Origin: a virus | Strand: one strand, 5' to 3' | UHGV virus genome: UHGV-0182515 | DNA length: 42,850 bases | Shown: positions 1,785 through 39,726 of the stretch, piece by piece | How the letters are laid out: each line of letters begins with the position of its first letter | How positions within the stretch are numbered: position 1 is the stretch's first letter | The notes under the pieces: model-generated | The model's database searches: none | What the model was told of the DNA's origin: nothing | The model's input: the letters and a program-made list of their open reading frames with translations, nothing else | Position numbers and translations under genes: made by a program

Positions 1785-1826
1785 TTGGTGTTCTTTCAGT
1801 TCTTCAATTCGAATATTGGTTACGTC

Positions 1827-2126: not shown

Positions 2127-2197
2127 AATCATCTCCATAAAACAAAACCCGCCGTAGCGAGTTCAGATAAAAGAAATCCCCGCGAGTTCGAGGATTG

Positions 2198-4078: not shown

Positions 4079-4079
4079 A

Positions 4080-4487: not shown

Positions 4488-4707
4488 TGGTTGCCTCCTT
4501 TGCTCGCTGATTCCACTCTGCTCTAACCTCTGAATAAAAAATCGCGCAGTCATTTCCAGGCGCTGCATATTTGCTACCAGATTGAGCGCGACACGTACCG
4601 CATCGAACGAAATAGAATCGACCGCCAGAGCCATATTCAGGGTGATCTGCTTCGCTGGCAACGTGCGCTGCACCGCCACAGAATGGACATGGTAGTAGGT
4701 TGCTCAT
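4474..4707 (-). CDS. Lar-family restriction alleviation protein
   Basis: [12 protein letters not shown]....CGTC zinc-ribbon pattern characteristic of Lar-like proteins of lambdoid prophages. Confidence 0.55.
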   Translation of the reverse strand: MSNLLPCPFCGGAAHVASEADHPEYGSGGRFYFVRCGTCRAQSGSKYAAPGNDCAIFYSEVRAEWNQRAKEATSEQD

Positions 4708-5141
4708 GAATGCACTCCCTTGTGAAGCTGTTCCGCACAATGCAGCAGGGCGTCAGTCGCCTCTTTCACCGTAACGCAGTCGCCATCGTCCAGCCCGGAC
4801 ACCGACGCGTGCTTAACGAACGCCGCGCAAAGGTCATCAAACGCCTTAGCCCGGACTTCAGTCAGGAAAGCATCGGTGGCCGGGGTTTTGCAGGACATTT
4901 GAATTGCCTTCTCTGTGTATAAAACACCCGTTCGATTGGCGGTATACATGATGGTGTTTACAGCATCTTGATGTGCTGATTTCACAGCCTCAACTTCAGC
5001 AGCCAGCGCCGCGCACTTGGCCTCCGCTTCAGCAAATTTACGCACCAGATATTCAGCGTTTGTTTCGTTAACCTTTAAATCTCGTGGGATGCATTTACCT
5101 TTCAGAAAACCATCCATCTCAATTAGTGACATTTGTTTCAT
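4704..5141 (-). CDS. Hypothetical phage early protein
   Basis: ORF in the early operon; ATGA overlap with the upstream small gene. Confidence 0.4.
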
Positions 5142-5302
5142 TTTTTCCCACTCCGCCACATCGCATTCAGATATTTGTTTTGATTCACTGATGGAAAAGA
5201 ATTTCTCTTAAGCAATTCCTCTCTCGATGGCATTGGCTTTACGCGTTGGCGAATAATCATTTCTGCCGGAAGAATGCCGGGATTGTATGCAAGTCCTCTC
5301 AT
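5138..5302 (-). CDS. Small hypothetical protein (about 54 aa)
   Basis: Short ORF filling the gap; the start was chosen to avoid overlap with the upstream gene. Confidence 0.25.
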
Positions 5303-5312
5303 GGTAAATTCC

Positions 5313-5606
5313 TCAGTCATTACTGATAGCGCCATAGCGTGAGCGGTAATTACGCAGGCGCGGGTCAATTTCAGGGAAGTGGGTATATGTGGCTTTGCGG
5401 AATGGTCGGATTGATGTCTGGTAAATTCGCTCGCGTTCTTCTTTCTCTGCAAGCCATATACAATGGCGAAATTCCTTTTCCTCTTTCGTTTCCTGCGGTA
5501 GCGACATTATCCGGTCGTAGTTTTTCCTGAATTTATCCAGCACCTCCGATACGGAATTGCCGGAACAGCGGCGCGCGTCATCCGCACCATACAGAGGCGC
5601 TGGCAT
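5313..5606 (-). CDS. Hypothetical phage early protein (97 aa)
   Basis: ORF in the early operon; no recognisable domain. Confidence 0.4.
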
Positions 5607-5622
5607 GGTTTTCTCCTGTTGA

Positions 5623-6171
5623 TTATTTAGCTAACTTTTTCCAGATCGCTGAAACGTATTTGGCTTGGTGAATGGCATCATCAAGAGCGTTGTGGCGAGT
5701 TCCTTTGAATGGCATATCTCGCTTAGGGTCGAATCCTATTACCTTTCCAAGCTCGACGATTGTTCTTACGTCGCGGTCATTCCACCACTGCCACGGAACT
5801 GGCTGCCCTGTCAGCGAATAACTGTTTCGGAGAATAACGCAGTCAAATGATGCTCCATTCCCCCAAACCTGAACGAATTTGTGGTTAGCGTTCTTTATGA
5901 TGAATTCAGATAACCATGAAAGAGCCGTTGAAAGCTCCTGAGTGTTGCTGGTTAGCGATTTTCTGGCTTCTTCACTCTGTTCCATCCACCATAAAATCGT
6001 TGAAGCGTCAGGACGCGCTCGATATCGCATTGATGACTCAAGCGAGATATTTACCGAGAACTCTTCTCCTGTTTCTCCGGTATTCGGGTCAAAGAATACC
6101 GCCCCAATAGAAATAACTGGCGCGTATGGCCCGTTGCCTATTGTTTCAAGGTCAACCATCAAGTGATTCAT
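5623..6171 (-). CDS. DEDDh-family 3'-5' exonuclease
   Basis: MVDLETIG (Asp/Glu motif I) and H.ALDDA (motif III with His) are present in the translation. Confidence 0.65.
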   Translation of the reverse strand: MNHLMVDLETIGNGPYAPVISIGAVFFDPNTGETGEEFSVNISLESSMRYRARPDASTILWWMEQSEEARKSLTSNTQELSTALSWLSEFIIKNANHKFVQVWGNGASFDCVILRNSYSLTGQPVPWQWWNDRDVRTIVELGKVIGFDPKRDMPFKGTRHNALDDAIHQAKYVSAIWKKLAK

Positions 6172-6179
6172 GTAAGTCC

Positions 6180-6695
6180 TTAAATTGCGTGAATAGCGTG
6201 ACGAGGGAAAGGGAGAGTTACTGGTGCAAAGGGGATATCGTCGTCAAAATCCATAGGTGGTTCGCTGTGATTTCCCTGCTGCTGAGGTTGCTGTCTTTGT
6301 TGCTGACCATTATTTCGCTGAGGTGAAGACTGTTCATTGCCTCCTTGCTTGCCACCAAGCATTTGCATGGTTCCACCAACTCCCACGATGACTTCGGTAG
6401 TGAACCGATCCTGTCCGCTTTGATCCTGCCATTTTCTTGTCCGCAATTTGCCTTCAAGATAAACCTCAGAGCCTTTTCGCAGATATTCGCTGGCAATTTC
6501 TGCCAGTTTCCCGCTCATTACCACGCGGTGCCACTCCGTCTGCTCCTTTTGCTCTCCAGTTTTCTTATCACGCCATTGTTCTGACGTAGCAACGGTAAGG
6601 TTTGCAAATGCCGTTCCTGATGGTGAATATCTGATTTCTGGATCATGCCCAAGGCGACCAATAATGATCACCTTATTTACGCCTCTGCTTGCCAT
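6180..6695 (-). CDS. ssb: Single-stranded DNA-binding protein (phage SSB) with a C-terminal extension
   Basis: N-terminal OB-fold region [16 protein letters not shown].., Gly/Gln-rich linker, and the acidic MDFDDDIPF motif followed by 15 additional residues before the stop. Confidence 0.85.
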
Positions 6696-7403
6696 TTATG
6701 CCGCCTGTTTTAGTTCGTTAACTCTGATGTTCATTACCTGAACGCATTTAGCCTGCGCCTCCTCGTTGCCAGCCATTAATTGCCAGTCACGCTGATAACG
6801 CTCGATGAGTTTTTTCTTGTCAGTTTCTGTCGCTGCATAATCGCTGAAGTCTTTCAGGATTTGTTCGCAGTCAACCGATGGAGATTTCTGGTTGGTATTT
6901 TCTGGTGATGGTTTGTTATCTGATGCTGGGATTGCCCATCCCGGAAGTGATGGAGGGAGCCAGTAAAATCCTGTTCCATCCTTCAGTTTTGCCCTGTGCC
7001 ACCCCTGCTTTTTATCGAGAGATGTTTGTGCGAAACCTTCCTCAAGGTTATACAGATACCTACCGATTCCCCACTGAACGGCAGCGCGCTTCATTGCACC
7101 GGAACGACCACCTTTGACGGCTTCTACCTGCGTGTTTTCAGCAGCATCCCATTTGGTTACCCATTCGGAATCAATCTTTATTGATATGCCGCATTCAACG
7201 CCGCCGTTGTTGGGAATATCGCGGTATTCATTGCGCCATCCTGCTTTGCCGCAAACATCGTCCAGGCGTTTCATGATTGCCCTGTTCGTGACATAAGCCA
7301 GCACCATAGCCCACACCTTTCCATCGCGTGTTTTACCGCTTTGCTGTATTCGCCATTCGATATCTTCAGGGCTGAATGGCTCATCGAATTTGTTCAAATC
7401 CAT
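6696..7403 (-). CDS. Rad52-like single-strand annealing protein
   Basis: Sits where a recombinase is expected next to ssb; the N-terminal region shows the Rad52/Sak-like pattern (..AYVTNRAIMKRLDDVCGKAGWRNEY..). Confidence 0.5.
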   Translation of the reverse strand: MDLNKFDEPFSPEDIEWRIQQSGKTRDGKVWAMVLAYVTNRAIMKRLDDVCGKAGWRNEYRDIPNNGGVECGISIKIDSEWVTKWDAAENTQVEAVKGGRSGAMKRAAVQWGIGRYLYNLEEGFAQTSLDKKQGWHRAKLKDGTGFYWLPPSLPGWAIPASDNKPSPENTNQKSPSVDCEQILKDFSDYAATETDKKKLIERYQRDWQLMAGNEEAQAKCVQVMNIRVNELKQAA

Positions 7404-7502
7404 AATTCACCTCAGAATGGACACGGCCCAAGGAAATAACGCTGATTTAATACTTCGACTCGGGACAAATTAAGGCATACCCGCATTCCTTCGCGGTCGC
7501 CA

Positions 7503-7661
7503 TTATGGCGATACCAGAGAGCTTTCTGCGTGTACATGCGCCTCTGTAACTTGCTCTCCTTCACTGTGGTTGCAAGTGACATGAATATCTCCTTCGTTAC
7601 CGATTAATTCTTTCATCTGACGAATGAATTCTTCGTCTGAACAGTTATCTGTAAAACTCAT
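7503..7661 (-). CDS. Small hypothetical protein in the kil position
   Basis: ATGA overlap with the cIII stop; Cys- and His-containing acidic peptide. Confidence 0.35.
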   Translation of the reverse strand: MSFTDNCSDEEFIRQMKELIGNEGDIHVTCNHSEGEQVTEAHVHAESSLVSP

Positions 7662-7828
7662 GGACGGCCTTGTTGTTTCAAAATATCCCAAATCTTTTCG
7701 AGCAAACTTTTCATTCTTGGTTGTTTAAAGTCTGCTCCGGTTAAAATATTTTTTCGTGAATGCTGTACCGATAAAATCGGGTTGAAAGGGCGAACCGATG
7801 CCGCCCCTGCAATAGCGAACTGTTGCAT
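7658..7828 (-). CDS. cIII: CIII-like FtsH inhibitor
   Basis: MQQFAIAG...LLEKIWDILKQQGRP resembles lambda CIII (MQYAIAG...LIDILNQPG); AAGGAG lies 6 nt upstream of the ATG. Confidence 0.7.
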   Translation of the reverse strand: MQQFAIAGAASVRPFNPILSVQHSRKNILTGADFKQPRMKSLLEKIWDILKQQGRP

Positions 7829-8013
7829 AGGATGCTCCTTCTGTTTGATTGCATAACGAAAACGCCTCGAGTGAAGCGTTATTGGTATGCATATAAAAAG
7901 GCCCTCACACTGGAGGGCAAAGAAGATTTCCAATAATCAGAACAAGTCGGCTCCTGTTTAGTTACGAGCGACATTGCTCCGTGTATTCACTCGTTGGAAT
8001 GAATACACAGTGC

Positions 8014-8202
8014 TTATTCGTCATGCATTTCAGGTAATTCTTCGTATTCGACGCCCCATACGAGTTTACACCAAGTGACTCGCTCATATCTTTTACAAAA
8101 ATCAGACCACATAACTTGTGTTCCATCATGGTTTGTTATTACTTCTGTAATATCACCAACACTAACAAAACTGGTATTAGAAGCAGTTATTTTTACTTTC
8201 AT
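8014..8202 (-). CDS. Hypothetical protein
   Basis: ORF between cIII and N; no recognisable domain. Confidence 0.35.
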   Translation of the reverse strand: MKVKITASNTSFVSVGDITEVITNHDGTQVMWSDFCKRYERVTWCKLVWGVEYEELPEMHDE

Positions 8203-8498
8203 TACTTATCCCCAAGAGCTTTTCTTATTGCTGCGAGACCTTTATTAACAGCTCCATACCATTCTGGATATGTTGTCGTTGTTCTATTTTTGGTTTGCTT
8301 AAGTAATAACTGAAGTGCTTCGAGAAGGTCAGGTGCTGCCGCTATTAGATTGGCATCTTCAATGCATTGAACTTCCTCACAGATTGCAATATACGAACGC
8401 CAGCCTGCGCCATTTTCAAGTGAGTCTGCCTGGATGATTTTAATCTCATCGCCATCCATCATTATTTCCCACTTACCTTCAGTACCTTTAAATTCCAT
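8202..8498 (-). CDS. Hypothetical protein
   Basis: ORF between cIII and N; no recognisable domain. Confidence 0.4.
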   Translation of the reverse strand: MEFKGTEGKWEIMMDGDEIKIIQADSLENGAGWRSYIAICEEVQCIEDANLIAAAPDLLEALQLLLKQTKNRTTTTYPEWYGAVNKGLAAIRKALGDK

Positions 8499-8550
8499 GT
8501 TAGCCTCTGTTGTTTATGCCAAAAATAAAGGCCGACTATGCGGCCATCAC

Positions 8551-8739
8551 TTAAATTTCCTTCCATCCCCAATCAAGCGTTTCAAATGCTACATCACGCA
8601 TGTTTTCGTCTTTTTCGTCCTGATCCATTTCATTCCACTCATTCTCGGATAAGCCAAGATCATCGAGTGTTACAACTGTCTTTTTGCAAGAATGAATGTT
8701 TGCGCCGGAATCCAACCAAATTTCAAATTTACGTTCCAT
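8551..8739 (-). CDS. Hypothetical acidic protein in the ral position
   Basis: First gene downstream of N; 62 aa; no similarity to Ral recognised. Confidence 0.35.
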   Translation of the reverse strand: MERKFEIWLDSGANIHSCKKTVVTLDDLGLSENEWNEMDQDEKDENMRDVAFETLDWGWKEI

Positions 8740-8747
8740 ATATCACC

Positions 8748-9074
8748 TCAAATAAGTGGTTTGCTGCCTAATTTCATTTTCTGGCGACCAACACAAGTCA
8801 CACCCATTTCACTGCGTGGCTTGCTGTACCATGTGCGCTGATTCTTGCGCTCAATACGTTGCAGGTTGCTTTCAATCTGTTCGTGGTATTCAGCCAGCAC
8901 CGTAAGGTCTATCGGATTCAGTGCGCTTTCTACTCGTGATTTCGGTTTGCGATTCAGCGAGAGAATAGGGCGGTTAACTGGTTTTGCGTTTACCCCAACC
9001 AACAGGGGATTTGCTGCTTTCCATTGAGCCTGTTTCTCTGCGCGACGTTCGCGGCGGCGTGTTTGTGCATCCAT
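8748..9074 (-). CDS. N: Antitermination protein N
   Basis: MDAQTRRRERRAEKQAQWKAANPLLVGV..; the Arg-rich N-terminal motif and most of the sequence match lambda N. Confidence 0.9.
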   Translation of the reverse strand: MDAQTRRRERRAEKQAQWKAANPLLVGVNAKPVNRPILSLNRKPKSRVESALNPIDLTVLAEYHEQIESNLQRIERKNQRTWYSKPRSEMGVTCVGRQKMKLGSKPLI

Positions 9075-9257
9075 CTGGATTCTCCTGTCAGTTAGCTTTG
9101 GTGGTGTGGTGGCTGGAGTCGAACCAGCTTCCATCGGTGCGCTGCCGATTGGGTTACGCGCATCCTGCGGTTAGTTGTCTAGAATCTTCACCGCAAAACT
9201 ATTCCCTAGCTCGCCGTTGAGCTTCACCACACCCCAAAGCTTTCTGCTTTGAATGCC

Positions 9258-9288
9258 GCCCTTCTTCAGGGCTTAATTTTTAAGAGCC
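9258..9288 (-). promoter_or_regulatory. nutL (boxB GCCCTGAAGAAGGGC, boxA GGCTCTTAA)
   Basis: Minus-strand sequence GGCTCTTAAAAATTAAGCCCTGAAGAAGGGC; boxB hairpin identical to lambda nutL, boxA differs at one base. Confidence 0.85.
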
Positions 9289-9327
9289 TCACCTTCATGG
9301 TGGTTAGTGCGTCCTGCTGATGGCTAA

Positions 9328-9356
9328 ATAGTACGATTTGTACTTTATTGAGTCAA
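9328..9356 (-). promoter_or_regulatory. pL promoter (-35 TTGACT, 17-bp spacer, -10 TACTAT) with overlapping operator AGTACGATTTGTACT (9330-9344)
   Basis: Hexamers read on the minus strand; a perfect inverted repeat AGTAC-N5-GTACT overlaps the -10. Confidence 0.6.
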
Positions 9357-9420
9357 TACAAAATGTTCTAAATATAATTAGTTTTTTATAACGCTTTGTA
9401 TTTAATGGGTTTATATTTTG

Positions 9421-9450
9421 GAAAAAGAAAACCCGACGCTAAGGTCGGGT
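9421..9450 (-). terminator. Rho-independent terminator downstream of cI
   Basis: Stem acccgac/gtcgggt with a 6-nt loop, followed on the minus strand by TTTCTTTTT. Confidence 0.6.
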
Positions 9451-9481
9451 TATTGTTGTGTATTTTAGAGTTGTGAGGCTG

Positions 9482-10141
9482 TTAACTAAATGTCTCTTCA
9501 GGCCACTGGCTGGCGATAACTTTCCCTACTACGGAACAGCTATCATTGCATGGAATCATTGGATATTGCGGGTTTAGTGGCTGTAGGAACACCTGACCGC
9601 TATCCCTGATCAGTTTCTTGAAGGTAAACTCGTCACCACCAAGTCTGGCTATGCAGAAATCACCTGGCTCAACAGCCTGCTCAGGGTCAACGAGAATTAA
9701 CATCCCGTCAGGAAAGCTTGGCTTGGATCCTGTTGGCGCGGTCATGGAATTACCTTCAACTTCAAGCCAGAACGCACAATCACTGGCTTTTTTGGTTGTG
9801 CTGACCCATCTCTCCGCATCACCTTTGGTAAAGGTTCTAAGCTCAGGCGAGAACATCCCGGCCTGAACATGAGAAAAAACAGGGTACTCATATTGTTTTT
9901 TTAACGGGGGCAGAGAGTATTCGCCAACAGGTGAAAATGTACCGTCGTGGTTGAATGAGACGTTATCAATACCAAGGTATTTAAACACCACACCAATCTC
10001 GTCAAGAGATGGATGACGAGATCCGCGCAACCAGTGACCAATTCCACCCTGCGTCATACCAAGCTCTTCAGCTAACCTCTCTTGAGTTATGCCGAGCTCT
10101 TTCATTCTGGATCTAGCCAGTTCATACCATTTCATTTTCAT
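9482..10141 (-). CDS. cI: CI-type prophage repressor (heterologous HTH N-domain joined to a lambda-like S24 C-domain)
   Basis: C-terminal part [18 protein letters not shown]...EVEGNSM...FKKL... is near-identical to lambda CI (catalytic Ser and Lys present); N-terminal 90 aa are an unrelated HTH domain. Confidence 0.85.
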
Positions 10142-10150
10142 ACCATTATT

Positions 10151-10227
10151 ATTACGCTATGTACTAAAACCATCCATGCACAAGATGTATTTTTTTGTTT
10201 GCATTCTAAAAGTACATATCGTATTAT
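10151..10227. promoter_or_regulatory. oR/pR/pRM region: operator-like sites ATTACgctatGTACT (10151-10165) and AGTACatatcGTATT (10211-10225); pR -35 TTGCAT (10199-10204), -10 TATTAT (10222-10227)
   Basis: Two imperfect copies of the AGTAC-N5-GTACT palindrome seen at pL; the second overlaps the putative pR -10. Confidence 0.45.
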
Positions 10228-10253
10228 TGTTTCATGGTTACTATGGAGGGCAT

Positions 10254-10469
10254 ATGAGCAACCTACGAAAATATCGAGAGTCACTGAATATCTCTCAAAC
10301 AACACTTGCTAAGGCAGTTGGATGCACACAGGGAGCTATCGGACATTGGGAATCTGGTCGTCGCTTCCCAGACCTTAAAACATGCCGTGCTCTTGTTGAG
10401 TGCCTAAACAAGTTAGGCGCAAAAGTCAGTCTTGATGACGTGTTCCCGCCGGAACACAAAGCCGCTTAA
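10254..10469 (+). CDS. cro: Cro-type repressor (HTH, 71 aa)
   Basis: GGAGGG located 4 nt upstream of the ATG; HTH motif QTTLAKAVGCTQGAIGHWESG; divergent from cI. Confidence 0.75.
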   Translation: MSNLRKYRESLNISQTTLAKAVGCTQGAIGHWESGRRFPDLKTCRALVECLNKLGAKVSLDDVFPPEHKAA

Positions 10470-10477
10470 GACATTCT

Positions 10478-10509
10478 CGCTCTTACACATCACAGCCCTG
10501 AAAAAGGGC
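10478..10509 (+). promoter_or_regulatory. nutR (boxA CGCTCTTAC, boxB GCCCTGAAAAAGGGC), followed by a tR1-like region
   Basis: Sequence matches lambda nutR and the lambda cro-cII intergenic region. Confidence 0.85.
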
Positions 10510-10588
10510 ATCAAATTAAACCACACCTATGGTGTATGCATTTATTTGCATACATTCAATCAATTGTTATCTAAGGAAATACTTACAT

Positions 10589-10882
10589 ATGGTTCGTGCA
10601 AACAAACGCAACGAGGCTCTAAGAATCGAGAGTGCGTTGCTTAACAAAATCGCAATGCTTGGAACTGAGAAGACAGCGGAAGCTGTGGGAGTTGATAAGT
10701 CGCAGATCAGCAGGTGGAAGAGGGACTGGATTCCAAAGTTCTCAATGCTGCTTGCTGTTCTTGAATGGGGCGTCGTTGACGACGACATGGCTCGATTGGC
10801 ACGACAAGTTGCTTCGATTCTCACCAATAAAAAACGCCCGGCGGCAACCGAGCGTTCTGATCAAATACAAATGGAATTTTAA
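10589..10882 (+). CDS. cII: CII transcriptional activator
   Basis: MVRANKRNEALRIESALLNKIAMLGTEKTAEAVGVDKSQISRWKRDWIPKFSMLLAVLEWGV.. is essentially lambda CII. Confidence 0.9.
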   Translation: MVRANKRNEALRIESALLNKIAMLGTEKTAEAVGVDKSQISRWKRDWIPKFSMLLAVLEWGVVDDDMARLARQVASILTNKKRPAATERSDQIQMEF

Positions 10883-10904
10883 CAACATCCAACGAGGTAA
10901 TTAT

Positions 10905-11177
10905 ATGCGAAACAAAGGCTTTAATCCACCTGATACACACAAAGAAGCTAAGCGTTTGCGCTTCCTTCGTTCCATTGATGAAAGAACTCAAATCTCTTTT
11001 GTGAAAGTTGCCAGAACTGAGCTTCTGAAGGCTGAGGCGAGGGCGTTGCTCCCGTCTCTACCAAAAGAGGAGGGATATACGTTCATTCCAAACGCATTTC
11101 TGGAAAAGCTTCTCAAAGAAGACATATCCGTAAGTCAGTTTAACGATGTTCTTAAGGTCTTTCGTCAAGGCAGGTAG
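10905..11177 (+). CDS. Hypothetical protein between cII and the replication genes (90 aa)
   Basis: ORF starting at the first ATG after the cII stop; basic; no recognised domain. Confidence 0.4.
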   Translation: MRNKGFNPPDTHKEAKRLRFLRSIDERTQISFVKVARTELLKAEARALLPSLPKEEGYTFIPNAFLEKLLKEDISVSQFNDVLKVFRQGR

Positions 11178-11179
11178 TT

Positions 11180-12127
11180 ATGAGCAATACAGCAAAAATC
11201 TACGATTTCAGCGCCGCACACGAGCGCAGGAGCAACAGGATGGAGAACCAGAAAACTGGTTACATTCCGTTGTACCGGAGCATTCTGAAACAGTCATGGG
11301 CGAAAGATGTTTATCTTCGCACCCTGTGGGAAAACCTTCTCCTGAATGCCGCCAGAAAGCCATACAAAGCGAATTTCAAAGGTCATGAATGGCATCTGCA
11401 ACCCGGTCAACTGGTTGTGACAGCAGCTGATTTAGGTCTTCAGTTATGCGACAGACATGGCAAGCCAGCAAGCCGTGATCAGGTTGAGCGGATGCTTCAG
11501 GTTTTTGTGAAAGAAGGGATGATCTCCATTGATGGAGAGAAGCAAAAAGGTCGTGTGATCACCATCACAAATTACCATGAATATGCTCAAAAAATGGACA
11601 ATTTACCCGCACATGATGCCGCACAAACAACCGCACATGATGCCGCACATGACGAAGCCAGTAATGGCGCAGCTTTCAGCGCACATTCCGCACATGAAAG
11701 CGCACATGAAGCCGCACAAACAACCGCACATCATGAACAAGAAGGTATTAACAAGAATATAAATAATACCCCCCTACCCCCCAATGGGGGCGGCGATGGG
11801 CAGGTTAAACCTGAACGTCGCAAGGCAGAACGAATCGACTACGAATCCTTCCTGAACGCCTACAACACCGAAGTCGGTGACAGACTTCCACATGCTGTTG
11901 CAGTCAACGAGAAACGCAAACGCCGCCTGAAGAAAATCATCCCGCAACTGAAAACGCCAAACGTGGACGGTTTCAGAGCGTATGTCAGGGCGTTTGTGCA
12001 TCAGGCCAAGCCGTTTTACTTCGGAGACAACGACACGGGCTGGACGGCTGATTTTGATTACCTGTTGAGGGAAGATTCGTTAACGGGAGTACGGGAAGGG
12101 AAGTTTGCAGACAGGGGGATTGCATGA
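11180..12127 (+). CDS. Replication initiator, O-like (contains the origin repeats)
   Basis: N-terminus [11 protein letters not shown] resembles lambda O (MTNTAKILNF..); the internal AH/AQ-rich segment is encoded by tandem DNA repeats. Confidence 0.7.
11606..11770. repeat. Putative replication origin: tandem about 12-bp iterons (CCGCACATGAxx) in two clusters followed by an AT-rich block
   Basis: Repeats CCGCACATGATG / CCGCACAAACAA / CCGCACATGACG etc. read directly; AT-rich aacaagaaggtattaacaagaatataaataata follows. Confidence 0.55.
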
Positions 12128-13500
12128 GACAGGATATCGAAGCGAGCGTTATCGGTGGCCTGCTGATTGGTGGATTAACTCCAACCGCCAGCGACGTTCT
12201 GGCAACGCTGGAGCCGGAAGCGTTTTCAATTCCGCTCTACCGGAAAGCCTTCGAGGTTATCCGCAAGCAGGCGCGAAACAGAAATTTAATCGACGCGCTG
12301 ATGGTTGCCGAGGCGTGCGGAGAGGAGCATTTCACGTCAATCCTGATGACCAGCAAAAACTGCCCGAGTGCCGCAAACCTGAAGGGATATGCCGGAATGG
12401 TCGCGGATAACTATCACCGCCGTCTGGTGCTGGAAATCATGGATGAAATGCGTGAACCAATTCAGAGCGGAACCATCGACGCATCGAGTCAGGCGATGGA
12501 TGAACTTGTAAAGCGTCTTTCAGCCATCAGAAAGCCCCGTGACGAGGTTAAACCGGTACGGTTAGGGGAAATCATCACTGACTACACTGACACGCTTGAC
12601 AGGCGTCTGAGGAACGGAGAAGAGTCAGATACCCTGAAGACCGGAATCGACGAACTTGACGCCATCACCGGAGGGATGAACGCAGAAGACCTGGTGATTA
12701 TCGCCGCTCGTCCCGGTATGGGTAAAACCGAACTGGCGCTGAAGATTGCCGAAGGCGTTGCAAGCCGCGTTATTCCTGGTTCTGACGTCCGGCGCGGAGT
12801 GTTGATTTTCTCAATGGAAATGAGCGCATTGCAGATTGCAGAGCGAAGTATTGCCAACGCCGGGAGGATGTCGGTTAGTGTGCTGCGAAATCCTGCATCG
12901 ATGGATGACGAAGGCTGGGCGCGCGTTGCTAACGGCATGAGTCAGCTTGCAGATTTGGATGTATGGGTAGTCGATGCCTCGCGGTTATCGGTCGAAGAAA
13001 TACGCTCAATCGCAGAACGGCACAAACAGGAAAATCCAAACCTGTCACTCATCATGGTGGATTATCTTGGCCTGATTGAGAAGCCGAAAGCAGATCGCAA
13101 CGACCTCGCAATTGCTCACATCTCCGGAAGCCTGAAGGCGATGGCGAAAGACCTGAAAACGCCTGTTATCTCCCTGAGTCAGCTTTCGCGCGATGTTGAG
13201 AAGCGACCAAACAAACGCCCGACAAACGCAGATTTGCGTGATTCAGGAAGCATTGAACAGGACGCAGACTCAATCATCATGCTCTATCGGGAAGCTGTAT
13301 ATGACGAGAACAGTAGCGCCGCGCCATTTGCTGAAATCATTGTGACGAAAAACCGTTTTGGCTCACTTGGTACGGTTTACCAGCGGTTCTGCAACGGACA
13401 CTTTGTTGCATGTGACCAGGATGAAGCCAGACAGATTTGCACAGCATCAAATGCACCTGCTGCGCGTGGCAGACGATATGCACAAGGGGCTGACGTATGA
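12124..13500 (+). CDS. Replicative DNA helicase, DnaB family
   Basis: Walker [13 protein letters not shown] and conserved DnaB C-terminal motifs; start overlaps the stop of the O-like gene. Confidence 0.85.
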
Positions 13501-26982: not shown

Positions 26983-28401
26983 ATGCCGATTCAGCAACTT
27001 CCGCTCATGAAAGGCGTCGGCAAAGACTTCCGAAATGCCGACTATATCGACTATCTGCCAGTGAATATGCTGGCTACACCCAAAGAAATCCTGAACAGCA
27101 GCGGATATCTTCGCTCATTCCCGGGAATTGCCAAACGTTCTGATGTGAACGGCGTATCGCGCGGCGTCGAGTACAACATGGCGCAGAGTGCCGTTTATCG
27201 CGTGTGTGGTGGCAAGCTGTACAAAGGCGAAAGTGAAGTCGGTGACGTCGCCGGAAGTGGTCGCGTATCAATGGCGCATGGTCGAACATCTCAGGCTGTA
27301 GGCGTTAATGGTCAACTGGTCGAGTATCGCTATGATGGCACGGTTAAAACCGTATCAAACTGGCCTACAGACAGCGGTTTTACGCAGTATGAGTTAGGTT
27401 CAGTTCGCGACATTACGCGCTTACGTGGGCGTTATGCGTGGTCAAAAGACGGTACTGATTCATGGTTTATCACTGACCTTGAAGACGAATCGCACCCTGA
27501 CCGCTACAGCGCACAATATCGTGCAGAATCGCAGCCTGACGGCATCATCGGCATAGGTACATGGCGAGACTTTATCGTCTGCTTTGGTTCATCGACGATT
27601 GAATATTTCTCCCTGACGGGTGCAACCACCGTTGGTGCTGCTTTGTATGTCGCCCAGCCATCGTTAATGGTGCAGAAAGGTATCGCTGGAACCTACTGCA
27701 AAACGCAGTTCGCTGATTCGTATGCGTTCATCAGCAATCCGGCAACAGGTGCGCCGTCTGTGTATATCATCGGCTCTGGTCAGGTATCACCAATCGCCAG
27801 CGCGAGCATTGAGAAAATACTACGCTCCTACACTGCTGATGAACTGGCTGATGGCGTGATGGAGTCTCTGCGATTTGATGCGCATGAGTTGCTGATTATC
27901 CATCTTGCGCGCCATGTTCTCGTGTACGACGCATCTTCAAGCGCCAATGGTACGCAATGGTGTGTGTTGAAAACTGGCTTGTATGACGATGTGTACCGCG
28001 CTATCGACTTCATTTACGAAGGCAATCAGATAACGTGCGGCGATAAGCTGGAATCTGTTACCGGGAAACTGCAGTTCGATATCAGCAGCCAGTACGACAA
28101 GCAACAGGAACACCTGCTGTTTACTCCACTGTTCAAAGCGGATAACGCCAGAGTGTTCGACCTTGAGGTTGAATCGTCAACTGGCGTTGCGCAGTATGCT
28201 GACCGCCTTTTTCTCTCTGCAACCACTGACGGTATCAATTACGGGCGTGAGCAGATGATTGAGCAGAATGAACCGTTCGTTTACGACAAACGCGTTTTGT
28301 GGAAGCGAGTTGGGCGCATCAGGAAAAATGTCGGCTTCAAATTGCGTGTTATCACTAAGTCACCTGTCACTCTGTCAGGCTGCCAGATAAGGATCGAGTA
28401 A
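26983..28401 (+). CDS. Tail hub protein (P22 gp10-like)
   Basis: 472 aa, the same length and position as P22 gp10. Confidence 0.75.
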
Positions 28402-29354
28402 TGGCTGATTCGAATCTCAATGAGCCGGTAATCATTCAGGCTACACGACTCGACACATCAGTCCTTCCACGCAATATCTTCTCGCAGTCATATCTGCTGT
28501 ACGTTATCGCACAGGGTGCTGATGTTGGTAACGTGGCTAACAAGGCCAACGAAGCAGGGAAGGGGGCTTATGATGCACAGGTGAAGAATGATGAGCAGGA
28601 TGTCACCCTTGCAGACCATGAATCCAGAATTGCTGCTGCTGAAGCAACTCTCGTCAATCATGAACATAGAATCGCAGCAGCGGAAAGCACTCTTGCAGAT
28701 CATGAAACAAGGATTACGGCTGCCGAAACAGAGCTGGCTGATCACGAGACGCGAATTGCTGCCAATGAATCTGAGTTAGCAAACCATGATGCGCGAATAA
28801 CTCAGAATACAACCGATATCAACGCACTTGATACCAGGCTCACAGCGGCAGAGGGAAGTATTTCGACGCTACAAAGCACAGTTGGTGATCACTCAACAAG
28901 AATATCTGCGCTTGAGTATGCCACCACGCGCAAGAAATCAGAGGTTGTTTACTCAGGAGTATCGGTAACCATTCCAACAGCGCCGACCAACCTTGTTAGC
29001 CTGCTGAAAACGCTCACGCCGTCATCCGGGACGTTGGCACCATTCTTCGATACTGATAACAACAAGATGGTTGTTTTCAACGAGAACAAAACCCTGTTCT
29101 TCAAGCTGTCGATTGTCGGGACGTGGCCCAGCGGAACCGCAAACAGGTCAATGCAGCTAACCTTTTCCGGCTCTGTTCCTGACACACTGGTAAGCAGTCG
29201 CAACTCGGCGACAACGACCGATAACATCCTGTTAGCTACGTTCTTCAGTGTGGATAAAGACGGCTTTCTTGCCACAAATGGCAGCACGTTAACCATTCAG
29301 TCGAATGGTGCGGCGTTTACTGCCACAACCATCAAGATAATCGCGGAGCAGTGA
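28401..29354 (+). CDS. Tail needle (P22 gp26-like) with heptad coiled-coil repeats and a C-terminal knob
   Basis: N-terminus [43 protein letters not shown] matches gp26; repeated [11 protein letters not shown] units; extra C-terminal about 100 aa. Confidence 0.8.
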
Positions 29355-29809
29355 TGATTCATTTCAAACCAACGCGAAACATCGACCTGATCGAAGCAGT
29401 AGGAAATCACCCTGACATTATCGCCGGGAGCAACAACGGCGATGGATACGACTACAAGCCTGAATGCCGTTACTTTGAGGTGAACGTGCACGGGCAGTTC
29501 GGCGGAATTGTTTACTATCAGGAGATTCAGCCGCTGACCTTTGATTGCCACGCCATGTACCTGCCAGAGATTCGTGGATTCAGCAAGGAAATCGGGCTGG
29601 CGTTCTGGCGATACATTCTGACTAACACCACCGTTCAGTGCGTCACATCGTTCGCCGCACGCAAATTCCGCCACGGGCAGATTTACTGCGCAATGATTGG
29701 CCTTAAGCGTGTCGGAACCATCAAGAAATACTTTAAAGGCGTGGATGACGTGACGTTTTACAGCGCCACACGCGAAGAACTAATCGACTTCCTGAATCAC
29801 GGGAGATAG
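29351..29809 (+). CDS. P22 gp14-like head/DNA-stabilisation protein
   Basis: Position after the needle gene and size (152 aa). Confidence 0.5.
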
Positions 29810-30514: not shown

Positions 30515-31990
30515 ATGGCTACGTGGCAACAGGGTATTAATTCTGGTGGTTTTCTGGCTGGCATTGGTGCGCAAAATGAGAATGCGCCAAAAGCAAGCGA
30601 CATTAACGCAACGCTTGGTCTGATCCGCGAAAACAATGAGTTGGCTCGCTCAGGTGCAAATAACGTTGGTCTGACCGCGTTACGTGGTCTGGCTGGAGTT
30701 GCTGATATTTACAATCAGGAACAGCAACAGAAAGCGATTAGTGCGTTCAATAAGGTTCACGCTGATGCATGGGCTTCTGGTGATCCATCGGGACTATTTA
30801 AGTTTGCCCAGGAAAATCCAGCGTTTGTTGCACAGGCACAACAGGCGTTTTCCGGTCTTAATGATCAGCAACGTAACGATATGGGCGATTTAGCCATGAG
30901 GGCTAACGTCGCTCTTTCTCAGGGACCGGAAGCCTACAGTAAATTCATTACTGACAACAAGGACAGGTTAAATCGCGTTGGTGCGAATGCTGACTGGATG
31001 ATTCAGACAGGTATCCAGAATCCAGAGCAGTTATCACACATGCTGACTACTATGTCTCTCGGTGCGCTTGGGCCAGAAAAGGCGTTTGCTGTTCAGGACA
31101 AGATAGCTGGTCGTGAGATTGACCGAGGCAGACTGGCAGAGACAATCCGCAGCAATCAGGCCAGCGAAGCACTTCAGGCGAGAGGGCAGGATATTAGCCG
31201 AGCAAATGCGTTAACGTCAGCATATGCACCAACAGCCGCAATGCAGAATTACAATCAGTACGCGCAAATGTTAAAGGCGGATCCAGATGGTGCAGCGGCA
31301 TTTGCGGCAGCGGCGGGAATTAATCCCAATGCTAAGAAATTACTTAAGGTTGAAACCAATCCTGATGGCTCGGTAACTAAGTATTACACCGATGGCAGCG
31401 AGGAAGCCGGAAAACTAAACCAACCTATATCTGGTGATGGCATTAAACCAATTAGCTTGCCACAAGCGCAAAGCATCATAGATAAGGCTAATGAGGGTTC
31501 CAAGAAGGCGGCAGGATTTGCTTTGCGATTAAAAGATTCAATGGACTCAATGAATCAGCTTAGTAAAAGCATTGACCCTAAGCGAGTTGCATTAATAAAT
31601 CGCTCTCTTGGTGATGGGACTATTGCAAATTTAAGCCTATCACCAGCGGAGCAGCAATATATGGTAAATGCGAGAGACGCCTTGTATGCAATTTTGCGCC
31701 CAGAAACAGGTGCAGCAATTACTCTGCCAGAGATGCAGGAGTATTCCAAAATGTACCTGCCTCAGCCCGGTGATTCCAAGGCTGCTACTGAAACAAAAAT
31801 GCGAAAAATGCAGGGCCAATATAACTCATTACGTGGTCAGTCTGGTCGCGTTTATGATGCTTTGGTGGTTTCAAGTGCTGCAAATAGTCAACAACAGAGC
31901 AATAGCCAACAACCGACAAATACCCAACAGCAGCAGAGTCAATCCGGATCATATACCTCAAAATCAGGCATTCAATTTACGGTGGAATGA
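30515..31990 (+). CDS. Ejection protein, gp20-like
   Basis: 491 aa, position and composition as in P22-like phages. Confidence 0.65.
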
Positions 31991-33828
31991 TGAAAGTAAC
32001 TGCAAACGGTAAGACATTTACCTTCCCTGATGGTACGAGCACGGAAGATATTGGCACCGCCATTGATGAGTATTTTGCTGGTCAGGCTGTTCAGCAACAA
32101 ACAGTTAATCAGGCCAATAATGAACCAGCACGTGAAGAACCATCATTGATGCAACAAGCTGGCGATTGGCTCACAGGTGGTCAAAGTGCAGGGCAAATTG
32201 CAGAGCAGGCTGGTCGTGGTCTGGTAAACATACCATTTGACGTATTGCAGGGCGGCGCAAGTCTGATTAATGCAATCAGTCATGGGCTTGGTGGACCCAA
32301 GGTTTTGGATGATGTTTATCGTCCAGTAGACAGACCGACAGACCCATACGCACAAGCCGGTGAAACAATTGGTGGGTATTTAGTTCCAGGAGTTGGAACG
32401 GCAGGAAGCATGGCTATTGGATCACTGGCAGAGGCCGCAAATCAGAAAGGCGATTTCGCACAAAATGCAGCTAAAAATGCCGGAGTTAACCTTGCCGCTC
32501 AGGGGGTTCTTTCCGCAGCAGCAAAGGGAATAGGGCGTGGAATAACGGCTATAAAAGGTGATATTGCGCCAGAAGTGGCGAAGAAAATTGCCACATCAGA
32601 ATCGATTGGCGTGACACCAATGACATCTGATGTTATCCCGCCGAAAAATGCTTTCACTCGCGGCCTTACTCAGGATGCCGAGGGGGCTTTGCTCGGGACA
32701 GGCTCAAAGCGAGCGGAGCAATATGCAACGCGTAGTAAGTTGGTAAGTAATTATTTTGACCGTTTTGGTGAGTACAACCCGGATGATGTGGTGAAATCTC
32801 TGACCACCACGTTAAGGGGACGGAAGGATGCCGCTGGCGCTGTTATCAATGACGTCACCAATAAAATGGGGAATGCCGCAGTTGATACCACAAACACTAT
32901 GAATGCTCTGAATACAGCGATCGCAAGACAGGAACGGCTTGGGACGTCTGCCAATCAAAGCCTGCTTACATCCTTGCGTAACCTACGCGAAGAATTAGCA
33001 AACCCTGCAACTGATTTGGATGTTACGTTTGATCTCTTGCGTCAGCACAGAACAGCATTTAGATCTAATGTTCAGGGAGATGCTATGGTCTTCCCCAACC
33101 AGGCAAAAGCAGCTACCAATATGGTAGAGAATGCAATGTCAAAAGACCTTCGTAACGCAGTTGCTAAAAACCTCGGTGCATCAGACGCAGCAAAATACCT
33201 TAAAGCAAATTCCGATTATGCAAACGTTTATAATAAGGTGCTTAATAAAAACATTGCCAACAAGCTCAACAAGGCAAGCAGTGAAGCCAGTCCTGAACTT
33301 ATAAATACCGTTGTATTAAGCAGAAAACCATCTGACGTGAAACGAATCTGGAGCGCATTGGATGATAAAGGGAAAGATGCTATGCGTGCAGCTTACGTCA
33401 GCAAAATAGCGGAAAAGGCCGGTGACTCTCCAGCCAAGTTCATCACTGAAGTTAATAAGCTTAAATCTCAGTCAGGCGGTGAAATTTACAACACTATTTT
33501 TTCTGGAAAGCACATGAAAGAGCTCGATGCTCTTCATGAAGTTCTACAGCAAACAGCAAGGTCAGACACCGCAAATGTAGTAACTCAGACGGGGCAATCA
33601 CAAGCCAACAGGATAAGGACGATTGGCGCAACTGCGACTCTTGGAGTATCAATGGGGATTGAGGCTGGTTTTGGTGCAATGATGCGTTTGTATGAGTCCA
33701 AAGCAGCAAGGAATGCGCTCTTACGTCTGGCAAACACTAAAGCTGGAACGCCAGCTTATGAAAGAGCGCTAAATCAGGCTGCTACTGCCGTGCGCCCGCT
33801 CTTAGCTAACGAAGCGACACGGCAGTAG
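31987..33828 (+). CDS. Ejection protein, gp16-like
   Basis: 613 aa Ala/Gly-rich protein ending the ejection gene trio. Confidence 0.65.
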
Positions 33829-33850: not shown

Positions 33851-34333
33851 TTATTTTATAGTTTTTATGAATTCTTTATTAAATCCCTTAGCTTCTCCGG
33901 GGTATCTTCCAAAGACAATTTTTATAAAAACAGAAAAAATAAAGATAGCAACGCTTAACAACAGTTGCAGTATCATTGGAACCCAAAGAACTACAGGCTC
34001 TATATTCATGAAACCAAATATTCTTCCGGCGATCATGGCGAAGTACCACACTGTTATCAGCAAACTTAGTGGCATATGAATTACTGATATTACCAATCCA
34101 AGAGCATCAGTAATTCTATTTTCAAATTTTTCAGGGGAAAACTTTTCTTTAAGGTAATTAAGTGCGCAGGTCTCATTCTCTGGATTTTCAGCATTTTTCC
34201 CTATGGCAATAGAAATCTCAGATATCCTTGATTCAATTCTTTTGCGTTTAATAAAACTAGAAAAAAAGAACCACGCAATCTGCAACCCTATCCCCATAAA
34301 TAGAGTTGCGGCAACTAGCACAGCGTAACTCAT
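33851..34333 (-). CDS. Inner-membrane protein in the sieA position (putative superinfection exclusion); may start at 34417
   Basis: Three hydrophobic TM segments; AT-rich codon usage; sits between the ejection genes and immI, where P22 carries sieA. Confidence 0.45.
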
Positions 34334-34395
34334 AGAATCAGACACACCAACCTCTTTAGTTTTTCTAGTTACTTTGTCACGATAGGATATGCGAA

Positions 34396-34605
34396 TTGAT
34401 AAAACTAAATTACGCACATGATAACTCAGTAATAATTGTTAATGAAAACATGATCACCTATATTGCACAAGGCGAAACAGGAAGCATAATCTGGTTTCAT
34501 GAGTGTGATCACGTTTGGGTAAATCAAAGTCAAGAGGAAATACTTGAAATTATCAAAAATAACTATCTAAACGTTGCACACGACTCATCTATCCATTTTT
34601 CATAA
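34396..34605 (+). CDS. Small hypothetical ORF (doubtful)
   Basis: 69-aa ORF on the opposite strand between two minus-strand genes; no RBS seen. Confidence 0.15.
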
Positions 34606-35144
34606 AATTGTATACCGAGATGGGCAAGAACAGATGGATGTATATCAACAAGCTTTTCGCCAAGATGTTCTGTTGGAGGTGGATAATCTTTGCCTTGGTT
34701 TCTTACGGTTATAGGCATAGTTGTTGCTGGATGAAACTCAACTATCATAGGGTCGCCTTCGTATTTTGCTATTTTCCCTGTTGAATCAATGATTAACTCT
34801 TTAATATAATGGCTTCTTGCTCCAGGAAATGCCCCAAGAGTAGTATAAGGAGGTTCAAGTTTTGAGATTTCCATAGTGGAATGATGATCAGCATTTCTTG
34901 CTTGGTGAAGGTAAGCAAGTGTTTTGTCTGTTTTTCTAAGCATGAACTTTTGGTTGAAGTGGCTGCTAAATTTTCCACTAACCGGCTTTGTTGCACAGAG
35001 CAACTTACTGAAAGACTTTTCTATATGCCCAAGACATTCTCGCCAGTGCATTTCAAAATCATCATGGTTTGTAGATGATTTCATCTGCTCTAGGCACTTT
35101 TTAGCTGCGATGATTTCTTTTTTTGCTGGGTTGTAATCGATCAT
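34563..35144 (-). CDS. Unknown cytoplasmic protein (193 aa) translationally coupled to mnt
   Basis: Start ATG overlaps the mnt stop (ATGA at 35141-35144); AT-rich; no recognised domain. Confidence 0.55.
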   Translation of the reverse strand: MIDYNPAKKEIIAAKKCLEQMKSSTNHDDFEMHWRECLGHIEKSFSKLLCATKPVSGKFSSHFNQKFMLRKTDKTLAYLHQARNADHHSTMEISKLEPPYTTLGAFPGARSHYIKELIIDSTGKIAKYEGDPMIVEFHPATTMPITVRNQGKDYPPPTEHLGEKLVDIHPSVLAHLGIQFYEKWIDESCATFR

Positions 35145-36728: not shown

Positions 36729-37229
36729 TTACCTACTCAACAGATGGTCAGCAACCATGTTTGCTGCCTTATAAGCTATAGCCGCTTCATCAATGGTGTT
36801 GAATCTCCCAAGGGTTATGTTTTTACCTGAGACATTTATCTGAGCTTGCCATTGATTTCTGGCTTGACAGAAAGTTACCCCCTTGATTCCAGCATTGCTA
36901 TTTCGAGGTCCGACATTTAATGCATTTACGACTCTGCTGACATCCCTAAGGTTTGAGATTGCGTTATTTCTTCTGTTTCTATCAATGTGGTCAATCTCTT
37001 GTTTGGGCCATTCGCCATATACATACAGCCAGGCAAGTCTATGTGCAAAATATCTTACGCCATCAATATTAATTGCGTTATATCCATAAGAAATTGTGCC
37101 AGCAACTTTCCCAACAGCACCTCTGGCGCTTAATTTCTTTTTCCAAGTGAAAATTCCTGTTTCTTTATTGTAATCGAGAACCTCCATAAGGCGCTCCCGA
37201 GTTACTACCTCGTGACGTCTCTTACTCAT
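36729..37229 (-). CDS. HNH endonuclease with AP2-type DNA-binding domain
   Basis: HNH region [32 protein letters not shown] and an AP2-like segment [41 protein letters not shown] upstream of the ATG at 37229. Confidence 0.7.
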
Positions 37230-37242
37230 TATTTTCTCCGGA

Positions 37243-39726
37243 ATGTTTATTATGCCAGAACAATTATACAACGTAGTTGTTTCACAACCAAGTCAGTTAT
37301 TTACTTTAGCTCGCTCGTTTAAAGCAAATGCCAATGGCAAAATTTATATCGGTAAAATTGACACTGACCCGGTAAATCCAGAAAACCAGATTCAGGTTTA
37401 TGTAGAGAACGAAGACGGCTCTCACGTTCCTGTTTCGCAACCAATCATCATTAACGCTGCCGGATATCCGGTATATAACGGACAGATTGCCAAATTCGTT
37501 ACCGTGCAAGGCCATTCTATGGCTGTTTATGATGCGTATGGTGCGCAGCAGTTTTATTTTCCCAATGTGCTGAAGTATGACCCCGATCAGCTACGGCAGC
37601 AATTAGAAGATCCAGATGGCGCTAAAAAATATCCTGAGTTGCAGATGGCACGATGGAGAGATTGTGGAGATGTTAGAGGGTGGGGAGCAAAAATAGATGG
37701 GGAAACAGATGATTCAGATGCTTTTATTAAAGCTTTAAACTCTGGAAGGTCGGTTATAACAATTCCGGAAGGAATATGCATCATCAAGAAGAATATTAAC
37801 ATTCCTGAGGGGTGTTCACTGGTTGGATCTGGCATTGATTATTGGGATACATATAGACCAGCGCCTGAAAGATTATTAAAAAGTTGGAGTAAAGGAACCC
37901 ATCTTGTATTTACTGGTGATGGAGAAAAAAACAAATATTTTTTTAACATCTCTAATGAAAGACCGGTTAAAATTGTTGAGGGGATATCTTGTAAGTTCAC
38001 TGAGTTTACGAATGAAGATTCTGTAGGTGTTACTCCTGCTACACCAAAAGCCATGAGCGTAGCTGTTAGTATCAACAGGGCATCACAGTTACGCAATCTG
38101 AGAATAATGGTAAGTAAAAATGGTATTGAAGGATACAATAACCCTGATTCTTATTCATTGGGTGATAACTGGGATATAGGGTTGCATGTATACGATAGCT
38201 GTGATTCAGTTATTGATAACGTACAGATTGTCGGCTATTGGAGGGTAAAAGGACTACTACTGACAGAAAATGACGGGAGCCTTTCAATGAAGGGAAATCC
38301 TGAAAAAACGCACTTTAATAACGTTTATGTCCAGTCAGGAATCGCGATAAGGAATAGCCCTCAGATTGATCTTGTAAGTAATACTGAAAGCTCAGTGACA
38401 TTTAAACATAAAAAGTCGATGAGAATAACTTCAGTTAAACAGTTTAAAATTGCTGGCAGTGAATCAGTATATACGTATTCAGATGCATCATTTGATGGAA
38501 CTAACATCACACTATCTGGTATTTCTCCTGAAATACAAGGTACAATAAGTGTAATCAGGTTTCCGTCAATTGGTAATAATTTTAGCGGGACTGTTTTTGA
38601 GAATACAGTAGCCACTACTCTTGATCATACATCAGGTAAGCCATCAGAATACTTTGGCCTTCCTGCATCCTTTGCATTAGAGGTTGATGGTTTCCCTGTT
38701 CGTAATTTAAGGTTTGATAAATTCAAAGCTCAAACAACATTTGATAAAGGAAATTGCATTTTTGGTGATTGCCGTGATGTTAAAATAACATCATCTGAGT
38801 TTGAAAATGGAATTATGATTGCGTATAACCTGACCGAGACTCAGGGTTATACAGGAAATCTTAGATTTTTTGCTTCTGATCTTCAGAGCAGCGTTAACAC
38901 AAGTGAGTTTAAACCAAGAGACGCATTTGTAGACAATAGACAAATAAAAACGGAGTTTACTGATGGTTCGTTCATTATAAAGAACTGGAGGCCTACAGAT
39001 ACAAAAATACAATGGTCGTCTGGAGTAGATGCTATTGTTCTTAGAGAGTCACCTGACGAACAATCAAACGGAAATATTTACGGGTATCACATTGATGGTA
39101 AAAGATGGATTAATGTTAGTGGATATAACAAAGATATAAATATTTCATCAAGAAACTTAAGCGTAAAAAACCATGGTGATGACTCTACAGTTATTAATAT
39201 ATTCGGCGACTCTGGAAATATTGCCATTAAAGGTAATTTTTTACCAATTATTGATAACAGCAAATCTCTTGGTGCACCATCATTTAGATGGGCTCAGATT
39301 TATTCTGCATCCGGGACTATAAGCACATCAGATGAAACACTTAAAACAATATATGACATTACTCAGGCAGAGCGTGATGCTGCGCTGGAAATAAAGGGAA
39401 TTATATGCAAGTTCAGGTTTAATGAGTCGATTAATTTTAAAGGATTGGAGTTATCAAGGTATCATTTTGGAGTTGGCGCTCAAACCGTAGGAGATATTCT
39501 TAGAAAGCGTGGTTTAAATCCTGAGCAATATGCTTTTTGGTGTTACGATGAATGGCCAGACGTATGGGATGAAGAGGTGATAACTGAAGAGAGCACAGAT
39601 CCTGATACAGGTGAGAAAATTTATTCTCAATATAAAACAGGAAATATGATTCTTGTAAAAAAAGCAGGTGGACGCTACGGAATTCGTTATGACGAATTGG
39701 CTATGTTTATATTAATGGCAATGTAG
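37243..39726 (+). CDS. Tailspike protein (P22-type head-binding N-domain, distinct receptor-binding domain, C-terminal intramolecular chaperone)
   Basis: N-terminal about 120 aa resemble P22 gp9 ([46 protein letters not shown]); the C-terminal about 130 aa carry an SDETLK motif typical of the self-cleaving chaperone domain (peptidase S74 type). Confidence 0.8.

Follow-up and report, generated by a model that had tools for sequence, protein, structure and literature searches.

An open reading frame matching the HS1 tail needle in virus genome UHGV-0182515, and whole-heptad length variants among its homologs

The protein of 317 residues encoded at 28401-29354 in the UHGV virus genome UHGV-0182515 (42,850 nt; this whole stretch is called the window below) is almost certainly the tail needle, of the published HS1 subtype, of a P22-like (Lederbergvirus-type) Escherichia coli prophage. 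This identification rests on identity to the HS1, Sf6, and P22 proteins and structures, on the heptad register, on the gene context, and on the length variants found among homologs together with their junctions. The testable defining features of a gp26-type needle, of an Sf6-type knob, and of the HS1 subtype were all found in the protein, and no observation contradicted its identification as a needle. With 97% identity, the gene represents a new allele; the architecture of the protein, its number of heptads, and the structure and function of its knob have been published. Our additions are only descriptive, namely a wider range of heptad numbers, defined insertion and deletion junctions, and knob-bearing needles beyond Escherichia and Shigella.

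Identity and gene context of the needle

The HS1 needle (E. coli HS, EcHS_A0316 / WP_000785558.1; L003:25116-26069) also has 317 residues and aligns to the protein of the window without gaps, with 306/317 identical positions (97%). Four of the 11 substitutions fall in the N-terminal domain, six in the shaft, and one in the knob. This sole knob difference, V219D, also distinguishes the protein from Sf6 and is found in 4/120 homologs. The 16-heptad shaft and the flanking genes are the same in HS1 and in the window, while the prophage surroundings differ in a mosaic fashion, HS1 having another early region and another tailspike (636 aa versus 827 aa in the window). At the DNA level, the needle gene is 100% identical in E. 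coli Combat2C1 and FDAARGOS_1256, where it is annotated as a "tail needle knob protein". NCBIfam contains no specific needle model and returned just sub-threshold SMC-like coiled-coil noise.

The needles of P22-like phages were described as 220-320 Å long with 11-16 heptads, and the HS1 needle as a protein of 317 aa with 16 heptads, against 11 in both Sf6 and P22 (Leavitt et al. 2013, PMC3741392). The protein of the window has the 317 residues and the five heptads in excess of Sf6 or P22 that define the HS1 subtype. With gp9 of the Shigella phage Sf6 (282 aa; knob PDB 3RWN; modeled in situ in PMC9728967), the DNA identity is 90% in the N-terminal domain and 95.6% in the knob, but Sf6 lacks 35 residues (5 heptads), distributed over three in-frame gaps of 14, 14, and 7 residues that all lie in the shaft, and the shaft DNA is only 65% identical where it can be aligned. 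P22 gp26 (PDB 2POH/3C9I) resembles the protein of the window in having a plug domain at its N-terminus, a Ca2+ layer with the NxxQD motif, and His-at-d and Asn-at-d heptads where the shaft begins, and in its function as a plug and as a needle that contacts the envelope; its C-terminus (residues 141-233), in contrast, is an unrelated domain and it has no knob. The first-pass annotation of this DNA had estimated the protein to be about 85 aa longer than P22 gp26, and the measured difference is 84 residues (317 versus 233 aa, the latter being the 2POH chain length). It had also taken the knob for an additional domain on a P22-like needle. This does not hold. The five added shaft heptads account for about 33 to 35 of the 84 extra residues, and the larger knob for the remainder.

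The needle ORF is uninterrupted from its ATG to its stop codon. The ATG overlaps the stop codon of the gp10 homolog by one base (TAATG, 28399-28403), and the TGA overlaps the ATG of the next gene by one base (TGATG, 29352-29356). The first of these overlaps suggests that translation of the needle is coupled to that of gp10, as far as can be judged from the sequence. The coordinates of the neighboring genes, of the needle domains, and of the length variants discussed below are listed in Table 1.

The needle gene belongs to a P22-like late operon, arranged in the order terminase, portal, scaffold, coat, gp4 (PF11650), gp10 (PF11134), and needle, followed on the 3′ side by gp14, gp7, gp20, a gp16-like protein, an Arc/antirepressor region, the tailspike, the integrase, and tRNA-Arg(CCU), the last being the prophage integration site. 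The position of the needle after gp10 and before gp14/gp7/gp20/gp16, established by Pfam searches on the neighbors, matches the order in Sf6 and HS1, and the needle-gp14 arrangement is that of Sf6. Over its late half, the window shares 99.5% identity with a prophage of E. coli Combat2C1, in which PGAP names the gp10 homolog "packaged DNA stabilization protein gp10". Three nested ORFs, two on the minus strand (28488-28745 and 28949-29296) and one in a different frame of the plus strand (28588-28779), lie wholly or almost wholly within the strongly conserved needle coding sequence.

Table 1. Features of the needle locus (window coordinates) and length variants of the needle relative to the 317-aa form.
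Feature	Position or change	Strand	Basis or junction
Tail hub / gp10 homolog, 472 aa	26983..28401	+	Pfam PF11134 Phage_stabilise, E=5e-299
Shine-Dalgarno-like AAGGAT	28389..28394	+	Sequence inspection; 6 nt 5′ of the needle ATG
Tail needle gene, HS1 type, 317 aa plus stop	28401..29354	+	ORF; 306/317 versus HS1 needle
N-terminal virion-binding (plug) domain, codons 1-67	28401..28601	+	Alignment to P22 gp26 structures
Coiled-coil shaft, codons 68-173	28602..28919	+	Heptad column composition; AlphaFold2
Five 14-residue (42-nt) units, codons 71-140	28611..28820	+	Region where length variants differ
Sf6/HS1-type knob, codons 174-317	28920..29351	+	PF16532, 4K6B match, Foldseek
gp14 homolog (DUF2824)	29354..29809	+	PF11039, E=2e-53; start overlaps needle stop
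303-aa variant	42-nt deletion		CGCGAAT, common to the units at codons 113 and 127
289-aa variant	84-nt deletion		CATGAA
268-aa variant	147-nt deletion		TGATCAC
345-aa variant	84-nt tandem duplication		Copies identical
331-aa variant	Same 84-nt duplication, on a 303-aa background		One mismatch between copies

Plug domain, shaft and knob

The N-terminus and the shaft match P22 gp26 structures with E-values of 1e-41 to 1e-49; residues 1-139 align to 2POH (E=5.7e-41) and residues 3-64 to 8EAP_B (E=8e-27). The N-terminal plug domain of ~60 residues is present, with many columns invariant across 27-29 homologs. In a polar core layer, N63-x-x-Q66-D67 (nt 28587-28601), N63, Q66, and D67 are invariant in 27-29 homologs. 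The NxxQD motif of P22 gp26 coordinates Ca2+ in a layer with N at position a and Q at position d (PMC13580157). The correspondence of the two layers fixes the register: L or I occupies position a, and position d is taken by His, Ala, or Asn. In both Sf6 and P22, the hexameric tail hub holds in its channel a quasi-six-fold plug built from the N-terminal helical hairpins of the needle trimer (PMC9728967). Based on 90-97% identity, the needle of the window would also plug the portal-tail channel and be released at infection, as is known for P22 and Sf6 (PMC3741392, PMC9728967).

Between the anchors KNDEQD and RKKSEV, the shaft consists of 15 heptads plus 4 residues, which corresponds to 16 heptads by the published count. 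When the sequence is printed in sevens from residue 64, position a is L, I, or V in 15/16 heptads; at position d, His and Ala mostly alternate, and some of the later heptads have Asn or Leu there. Six layers have His at d (H73, 87, 101, 115, 129, and 164), against two in P22. The AlphaFold2 model, which is that of a monomer and has low confidence for residues 1-40, contains one continuous helix over residues 42-175, with a pLDDT above 90 over roughly residues 61-160. A long α-helical shaft with heptad periodicity was found both in the composition of position a and in the model. By analogy with the P22, Sf6, and HS1 structures, the shaft is probably trimeric; needle shafts were described as three-stranded coiled coils with the knob at the distal tip (PMC3741392).

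The shaft had been noted at first reading to contain near-identical units encoded by tandem DNA repeats. The periodicity itself was borne out. Amino-acid self-identity in the shaft at a lag of 14 is 0.468, versus 0.098 ± 0.029 for shuffled sequences, and DNA self-identity at a lag of 42 is 0.619, versus 0.309 ± 0.038 for codon-shuffled sequences; both values were reached in 0/5000 shuffles. The units are not near-identical, however. Protein identity is 57-79% among the first four and just 29-43% for the fifth; at the DNA level, pairwise identity of the 42-nt units is 43-71%, with longest common words of 5-10 nt. The case for a tandem DNA array is also weak, as Tandem Repeats Finder detected none in 28000-29800 at a minimum score of 30. 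A repeat-family search returned a 42-nt family with 61-74% identity. The 14-residue periodicity is a two-heptad repeat in which His alternates with a small or polar residue at core position d.

For the C-terminal domain, the Pfam profile PF16532 (Sf6-type tail needle knob) was matched over positions 1-175 of 175, with E=4e-107 and 355.8 bits versus a cut-off of 27. Residues 165-317 are identical at 152/153 positions to the crystallized HS1 knob (PDB 4K6B, 1.1 Å; PMC3741392), and the Sf6 gp9 knob 3RWN is nearly identical. Structure prediction, the check proposed for this domain, was run with AlphaFold2 and gave a β-rich domain at residues 179-316 following the helix. The top Foldseek matches were 4K6B and 3RWN (TM 0.82-0.83, E=5e-22), and these were followed by TNF, C1q, and PRD1 P5 folds. 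A TNF-like jellyroll is indicated both by the comparison of the model with 4K6B/3RWN and by the sequence identity. The domain is rich in Thr and Ser, as had been seen from the sequence, with Ser+Thr making up 28.5% of the C-terminal 144 residues. The alignment to P22 gp26 structures, the PF16532 match, the identity to HS1, and the Foldseek results together support the initial reading of the protein as a tail needle of the gp26 type that carries a knob at its distal end.

The residues in contact with L-glutamate in the HS1 structure (PMC3741392) are E181, K235, S283, D285, L290, and K312, and all are present with the same numbering, as are the phosphate-contact residues S266-R267-N268. In the crystal structures, the Sf6/HS1-type knob is a jellyroll of the TNF/C1q kind with L-glutamate and phosphate bound; going by this residue conservation, the knob of the window probably binds both as well.

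The following working of the needle may be proposed from the literature on near-identical proteins, which is the source for the plug function, the trimer, the L-glutamate binding, and the kinetic role. Three chains would form one fiber. The ~60 residues at the N-terminus would double back into a helical hairpin that closes the hexameric gp10 channel, so that packaged DNA would be kept in the head. Residues ~68-173 would form a 16-heptad trimeric coiled coil that exceeds those of Sf6 and P22 by about 5 heptads (~50 Å), and residues 174-317 a trimeric TNF-like knob at the distal tip. At infection, the needle would reach the outer membrane first, its release would open the channel, and the tip domain would affect the rate of DNA delivery. 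P22 particles carrying the HS1 knob infect Salmonella normally and release K+ at 40-70% of the wild-type rate (PMC3741392). The copy in the window is likely to be functional.

A contribution of the knob to host recognition had also been put forward at first reading, and in its strongest form the knob would be a receptor-binding domain that sets host range, as in adenovirus and PRD1. We consider this very unlikely. The knob does share its TNF/C1q-like fold with PRD1 P5 and other receptor-binding knobs, and it would sit at the distal tip, the expected site of first contact with the outer membrane (PMC3741392). The trimeric knobs of PRD1 P5, BclA, and the C1q globular heads have the jellyroll trimer fold in common with it (Foldseek E=1e-4 to 1e-5), but with a sequence identity of only about 10-16%, and, whereas they bind receptors, tests with P22 chimeras revealed no receptor role for the needle knob (PMC3741392). 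In that study, infection of Salmonella was normal with the HS1 or the Sf6 knob, so that the knob did not set host specificity, although the rates of K+ release and DNA delivery changed; mutations designed against L-glutamate binding were without apparent effect; and the P22 tip domain was dispensable in the laboratory. Moreover, the knob is almost invariant (≤4.9% divergence in 2013, PMC3741392) across phages with widely differing tailspikes. A near-invariant knob accompanied by tailspikes as varied as 517, 636, and 827 aa at the same needle length is unlike a host-range determinant. The published chimeras thus contradict the suggested part of the knob in host recognition, and a role of the tip in delivery kinetics is the reading that we retain.

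Length variants among homologs

Needle lengths were surveyed in the 120 best of 2450 homologs, the core being defined as the segment between the KNDEQD and RKKSEV anchors. A comparison of repeat number among related prophages had been recommended with the first-pass annotation, and it revealed variation by whole heptads. The core length is 7n+4, with n from 6 to 19, in 116/120 of these best homologs, and n is 15 in the window. The cores in those 116 measure 46, 60, 74, 81, 88, 95, 102, 109, 123, 130, or 137 residues. The 4/120 that break the rule have cores of 77, 90, 101, and 108 residues, each of them a single-sequence cluster on one or two contigs, and may be due to error or to a tolerated stutter. 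Knob-bearing needles were found with lengths of 254, 268, 282, 289, 296, 303, 310, 317, 331, 338, and 345 aa. By the published way of counting, the range is 7-20 heptads, which would amount to a spread of about 135 Å, and is broader than the 11-16 stated in 2013. The 254-aa needles occur in complete-looking late operons with an integrase, and the idea that such short needles are confined to decayed remnants was rejected on this ground.

The changes that separate five of these variants from the 317-aa form could be defined at the DNA level (Table 1). The deletion junctions lie at microhomologies of 6-7 nt, and the indel junctions map to the region of codons 71-140 and to codon 162. The 310-aa and 338-aa forms contain two and three copies, respectively, of a different 28-residue block. 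Among relatives, shaft length shifts by whole heptads, apparently through in-register deletions and duplications between diverged HExRI-coding units. We infer that the variants reflect rare events of this kind at microhomologies, or unequal recombination, and not frequent slippage. Such quantized needle lengths, with junctions identifiable at microhomologies, provide a population-level view of modest added value, and the variants constitute a natural allelic series for testing needle length against DNA delivery.

About 164 complete E. coli genomes, out of 5426 that contain ~975 needle loci, have the stable 954-nt form, with identities of 93.8-100%. Further, independent samples conform to the whole-heptad rule. 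In IMG/VR, the 80 contigs whose knobs are most similar divide into 49 with a needle of 317 aa and 31 with one of 282 or 284 aa. Most homologs named from Klebsiella aerogenes and Serratia (72-78% identity) have 317 aa; needles of 281 and 288 aa were found in Citrobacter species-representative genomes, and the Buttiauxella needle has 310 aa and a 7n+4 core.

Variation of repeat number by slippage had been proposed at first reading, and the repeat block could on that basis be viewed as a contingency locus, in which replication slippage on near-identical tandem repeats would change the length frequently within a lineage. Whole-heptad length variants do exist, and in two of them there are recent 84-nt tandem duplications, with identical copies in one case and a single mismatch in the other, that, once formed, would be prone to recombination. 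In the allele of the window, however, the DNA units have diverged, their common words are of ≤10 nt and they do not register as an array, so that simple slippage on near-identical repeats is a poor fit; the variants look like in-register indels at microhomologies. The 954-nt length is also constant across the E. coli genomes, the 49 IMG/VR contigs, and the Klebsiella/Serratia homologs cited above, which makes the variants look like rare fixed events rather than frequent switching. A contingency locus is on these grounds highly improbable, and we prefer rare in-register events as the origin of the length series.

It is also possible, though unlikely in our estimate, that the spread of shaft lengths is adaptive. 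Shaft length might tune how far the knob reaches past the tailspikes, and with it the timing of outer-membrane sensing and the rate of DNA delivery through O-antigen or capsule of differing thickness, and the number of His-at-d layers (two in P22, six here) might make stability dependent on pH or metal. As a quick check of this reading, a relation in which needle length tracks tailspike length was examined. Needles of 317 aa were found with tailspikes of 517 (L013), 636 (HS1), and 827 aa (window), and needles of 254 aa with tailspikes of 589 or 603 aa; in Sf6, a 282-aa needle accompanies a 623-aa tailspike (PMC9728967). No coupling was seen in this small sample, which rejects the relation weakly.

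That the long C-terminal part is an artifact, from a frameshift or a fusion of two genes, has practically no likelihood left, since the same or nearly the same 954-nt ORF recurs in many independent complete genomes (the E. coli genomes above), in the 49 IMG/VR contigs, and in three isolated phages (720R6, JEP4, and Gally), its full length aligns to the HS1 protein, and the knob, which matches two crystal structures, was crystallized in fusion with the end of this shaft (4K6B, 3RWN).

Knob-bearing needles were also recorded outside the genera known for them. In the 2013 survey they were found only in Escherichia and Shigella phages (PMC3741392). We observed them in Klebsiella aerogenes, Serratia marcescens, and S. 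fonticola (P0064, P0069, and P0117) and in Klebsiella phage phiKp_30, as well as in Citrobacter spp. and Buttiauxella (L098-L100 and L103), which extends their known distribution to Klebsiella, Serratia, Citrobacter, and Buttiauxella.

Other features of the prophage and distant knobs

The early part of the window (1-13500) has no match to the Combat2C1 prophage, and the early region is mosaic. In Combat2C1, an IS100 is inserted in a replication gene; no IS100 match was found in the window. The protein in the gp16 position (31987-33828, plus strand; 613 aa) had no Pfam match at 1e-5, while the neighboring gp7 and gp20 match strongly. This protein is a divergent ejection protein.

The slot between gp16 and the Arc/antirepressor region is a typical cargo (moron) site of P22-like prophages. 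In the window it holds two ORFs of 188 and 193 aa (33851-34417 and 34563-35144, both on the minus strand), for which Pfam and PADLOC gave zero matches.

Between the antirepressor gene and the start of the tailspike, an ORF on the minus strand (36729-37271) encodes HNH_3 and AP2 domains (Pfam E=2.5e-16; PADLOC "HEase") and resembles a homing endonuclease; the tailspike ORF on the opposite strand shares its first bases with it. The tailspike (37243-39726, plus strand) is unusually long at 827 aa; its N-terminus is a P22 head-binding domain, and there is a weak pectate-lyase-like match. The other prophages with a 317-aa needle have tailspikes of 517-636 aa, and needle and tailspike therefore assort independently.

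Distant homologs of the knob, at 50-52% identity and without the gp26 N-terminus, were found in Enterobacter asburiae (L102) and Citrobacter meridianamericanus (L101), around 1501-1929. In the former, the knob is preceded by collagen-like Gly-X-Y triplets (GPQGPAGP), reminiscent of C1q and BclA. Finally, hundreds of E. coli O157:H7 genomes match the knob half alone (query positions 507-954; H92-H110), beside DUF2824 and without gp10. These matches are probably the small P22-like remnants described by Leavitt et al. (2013, PMC3741392).
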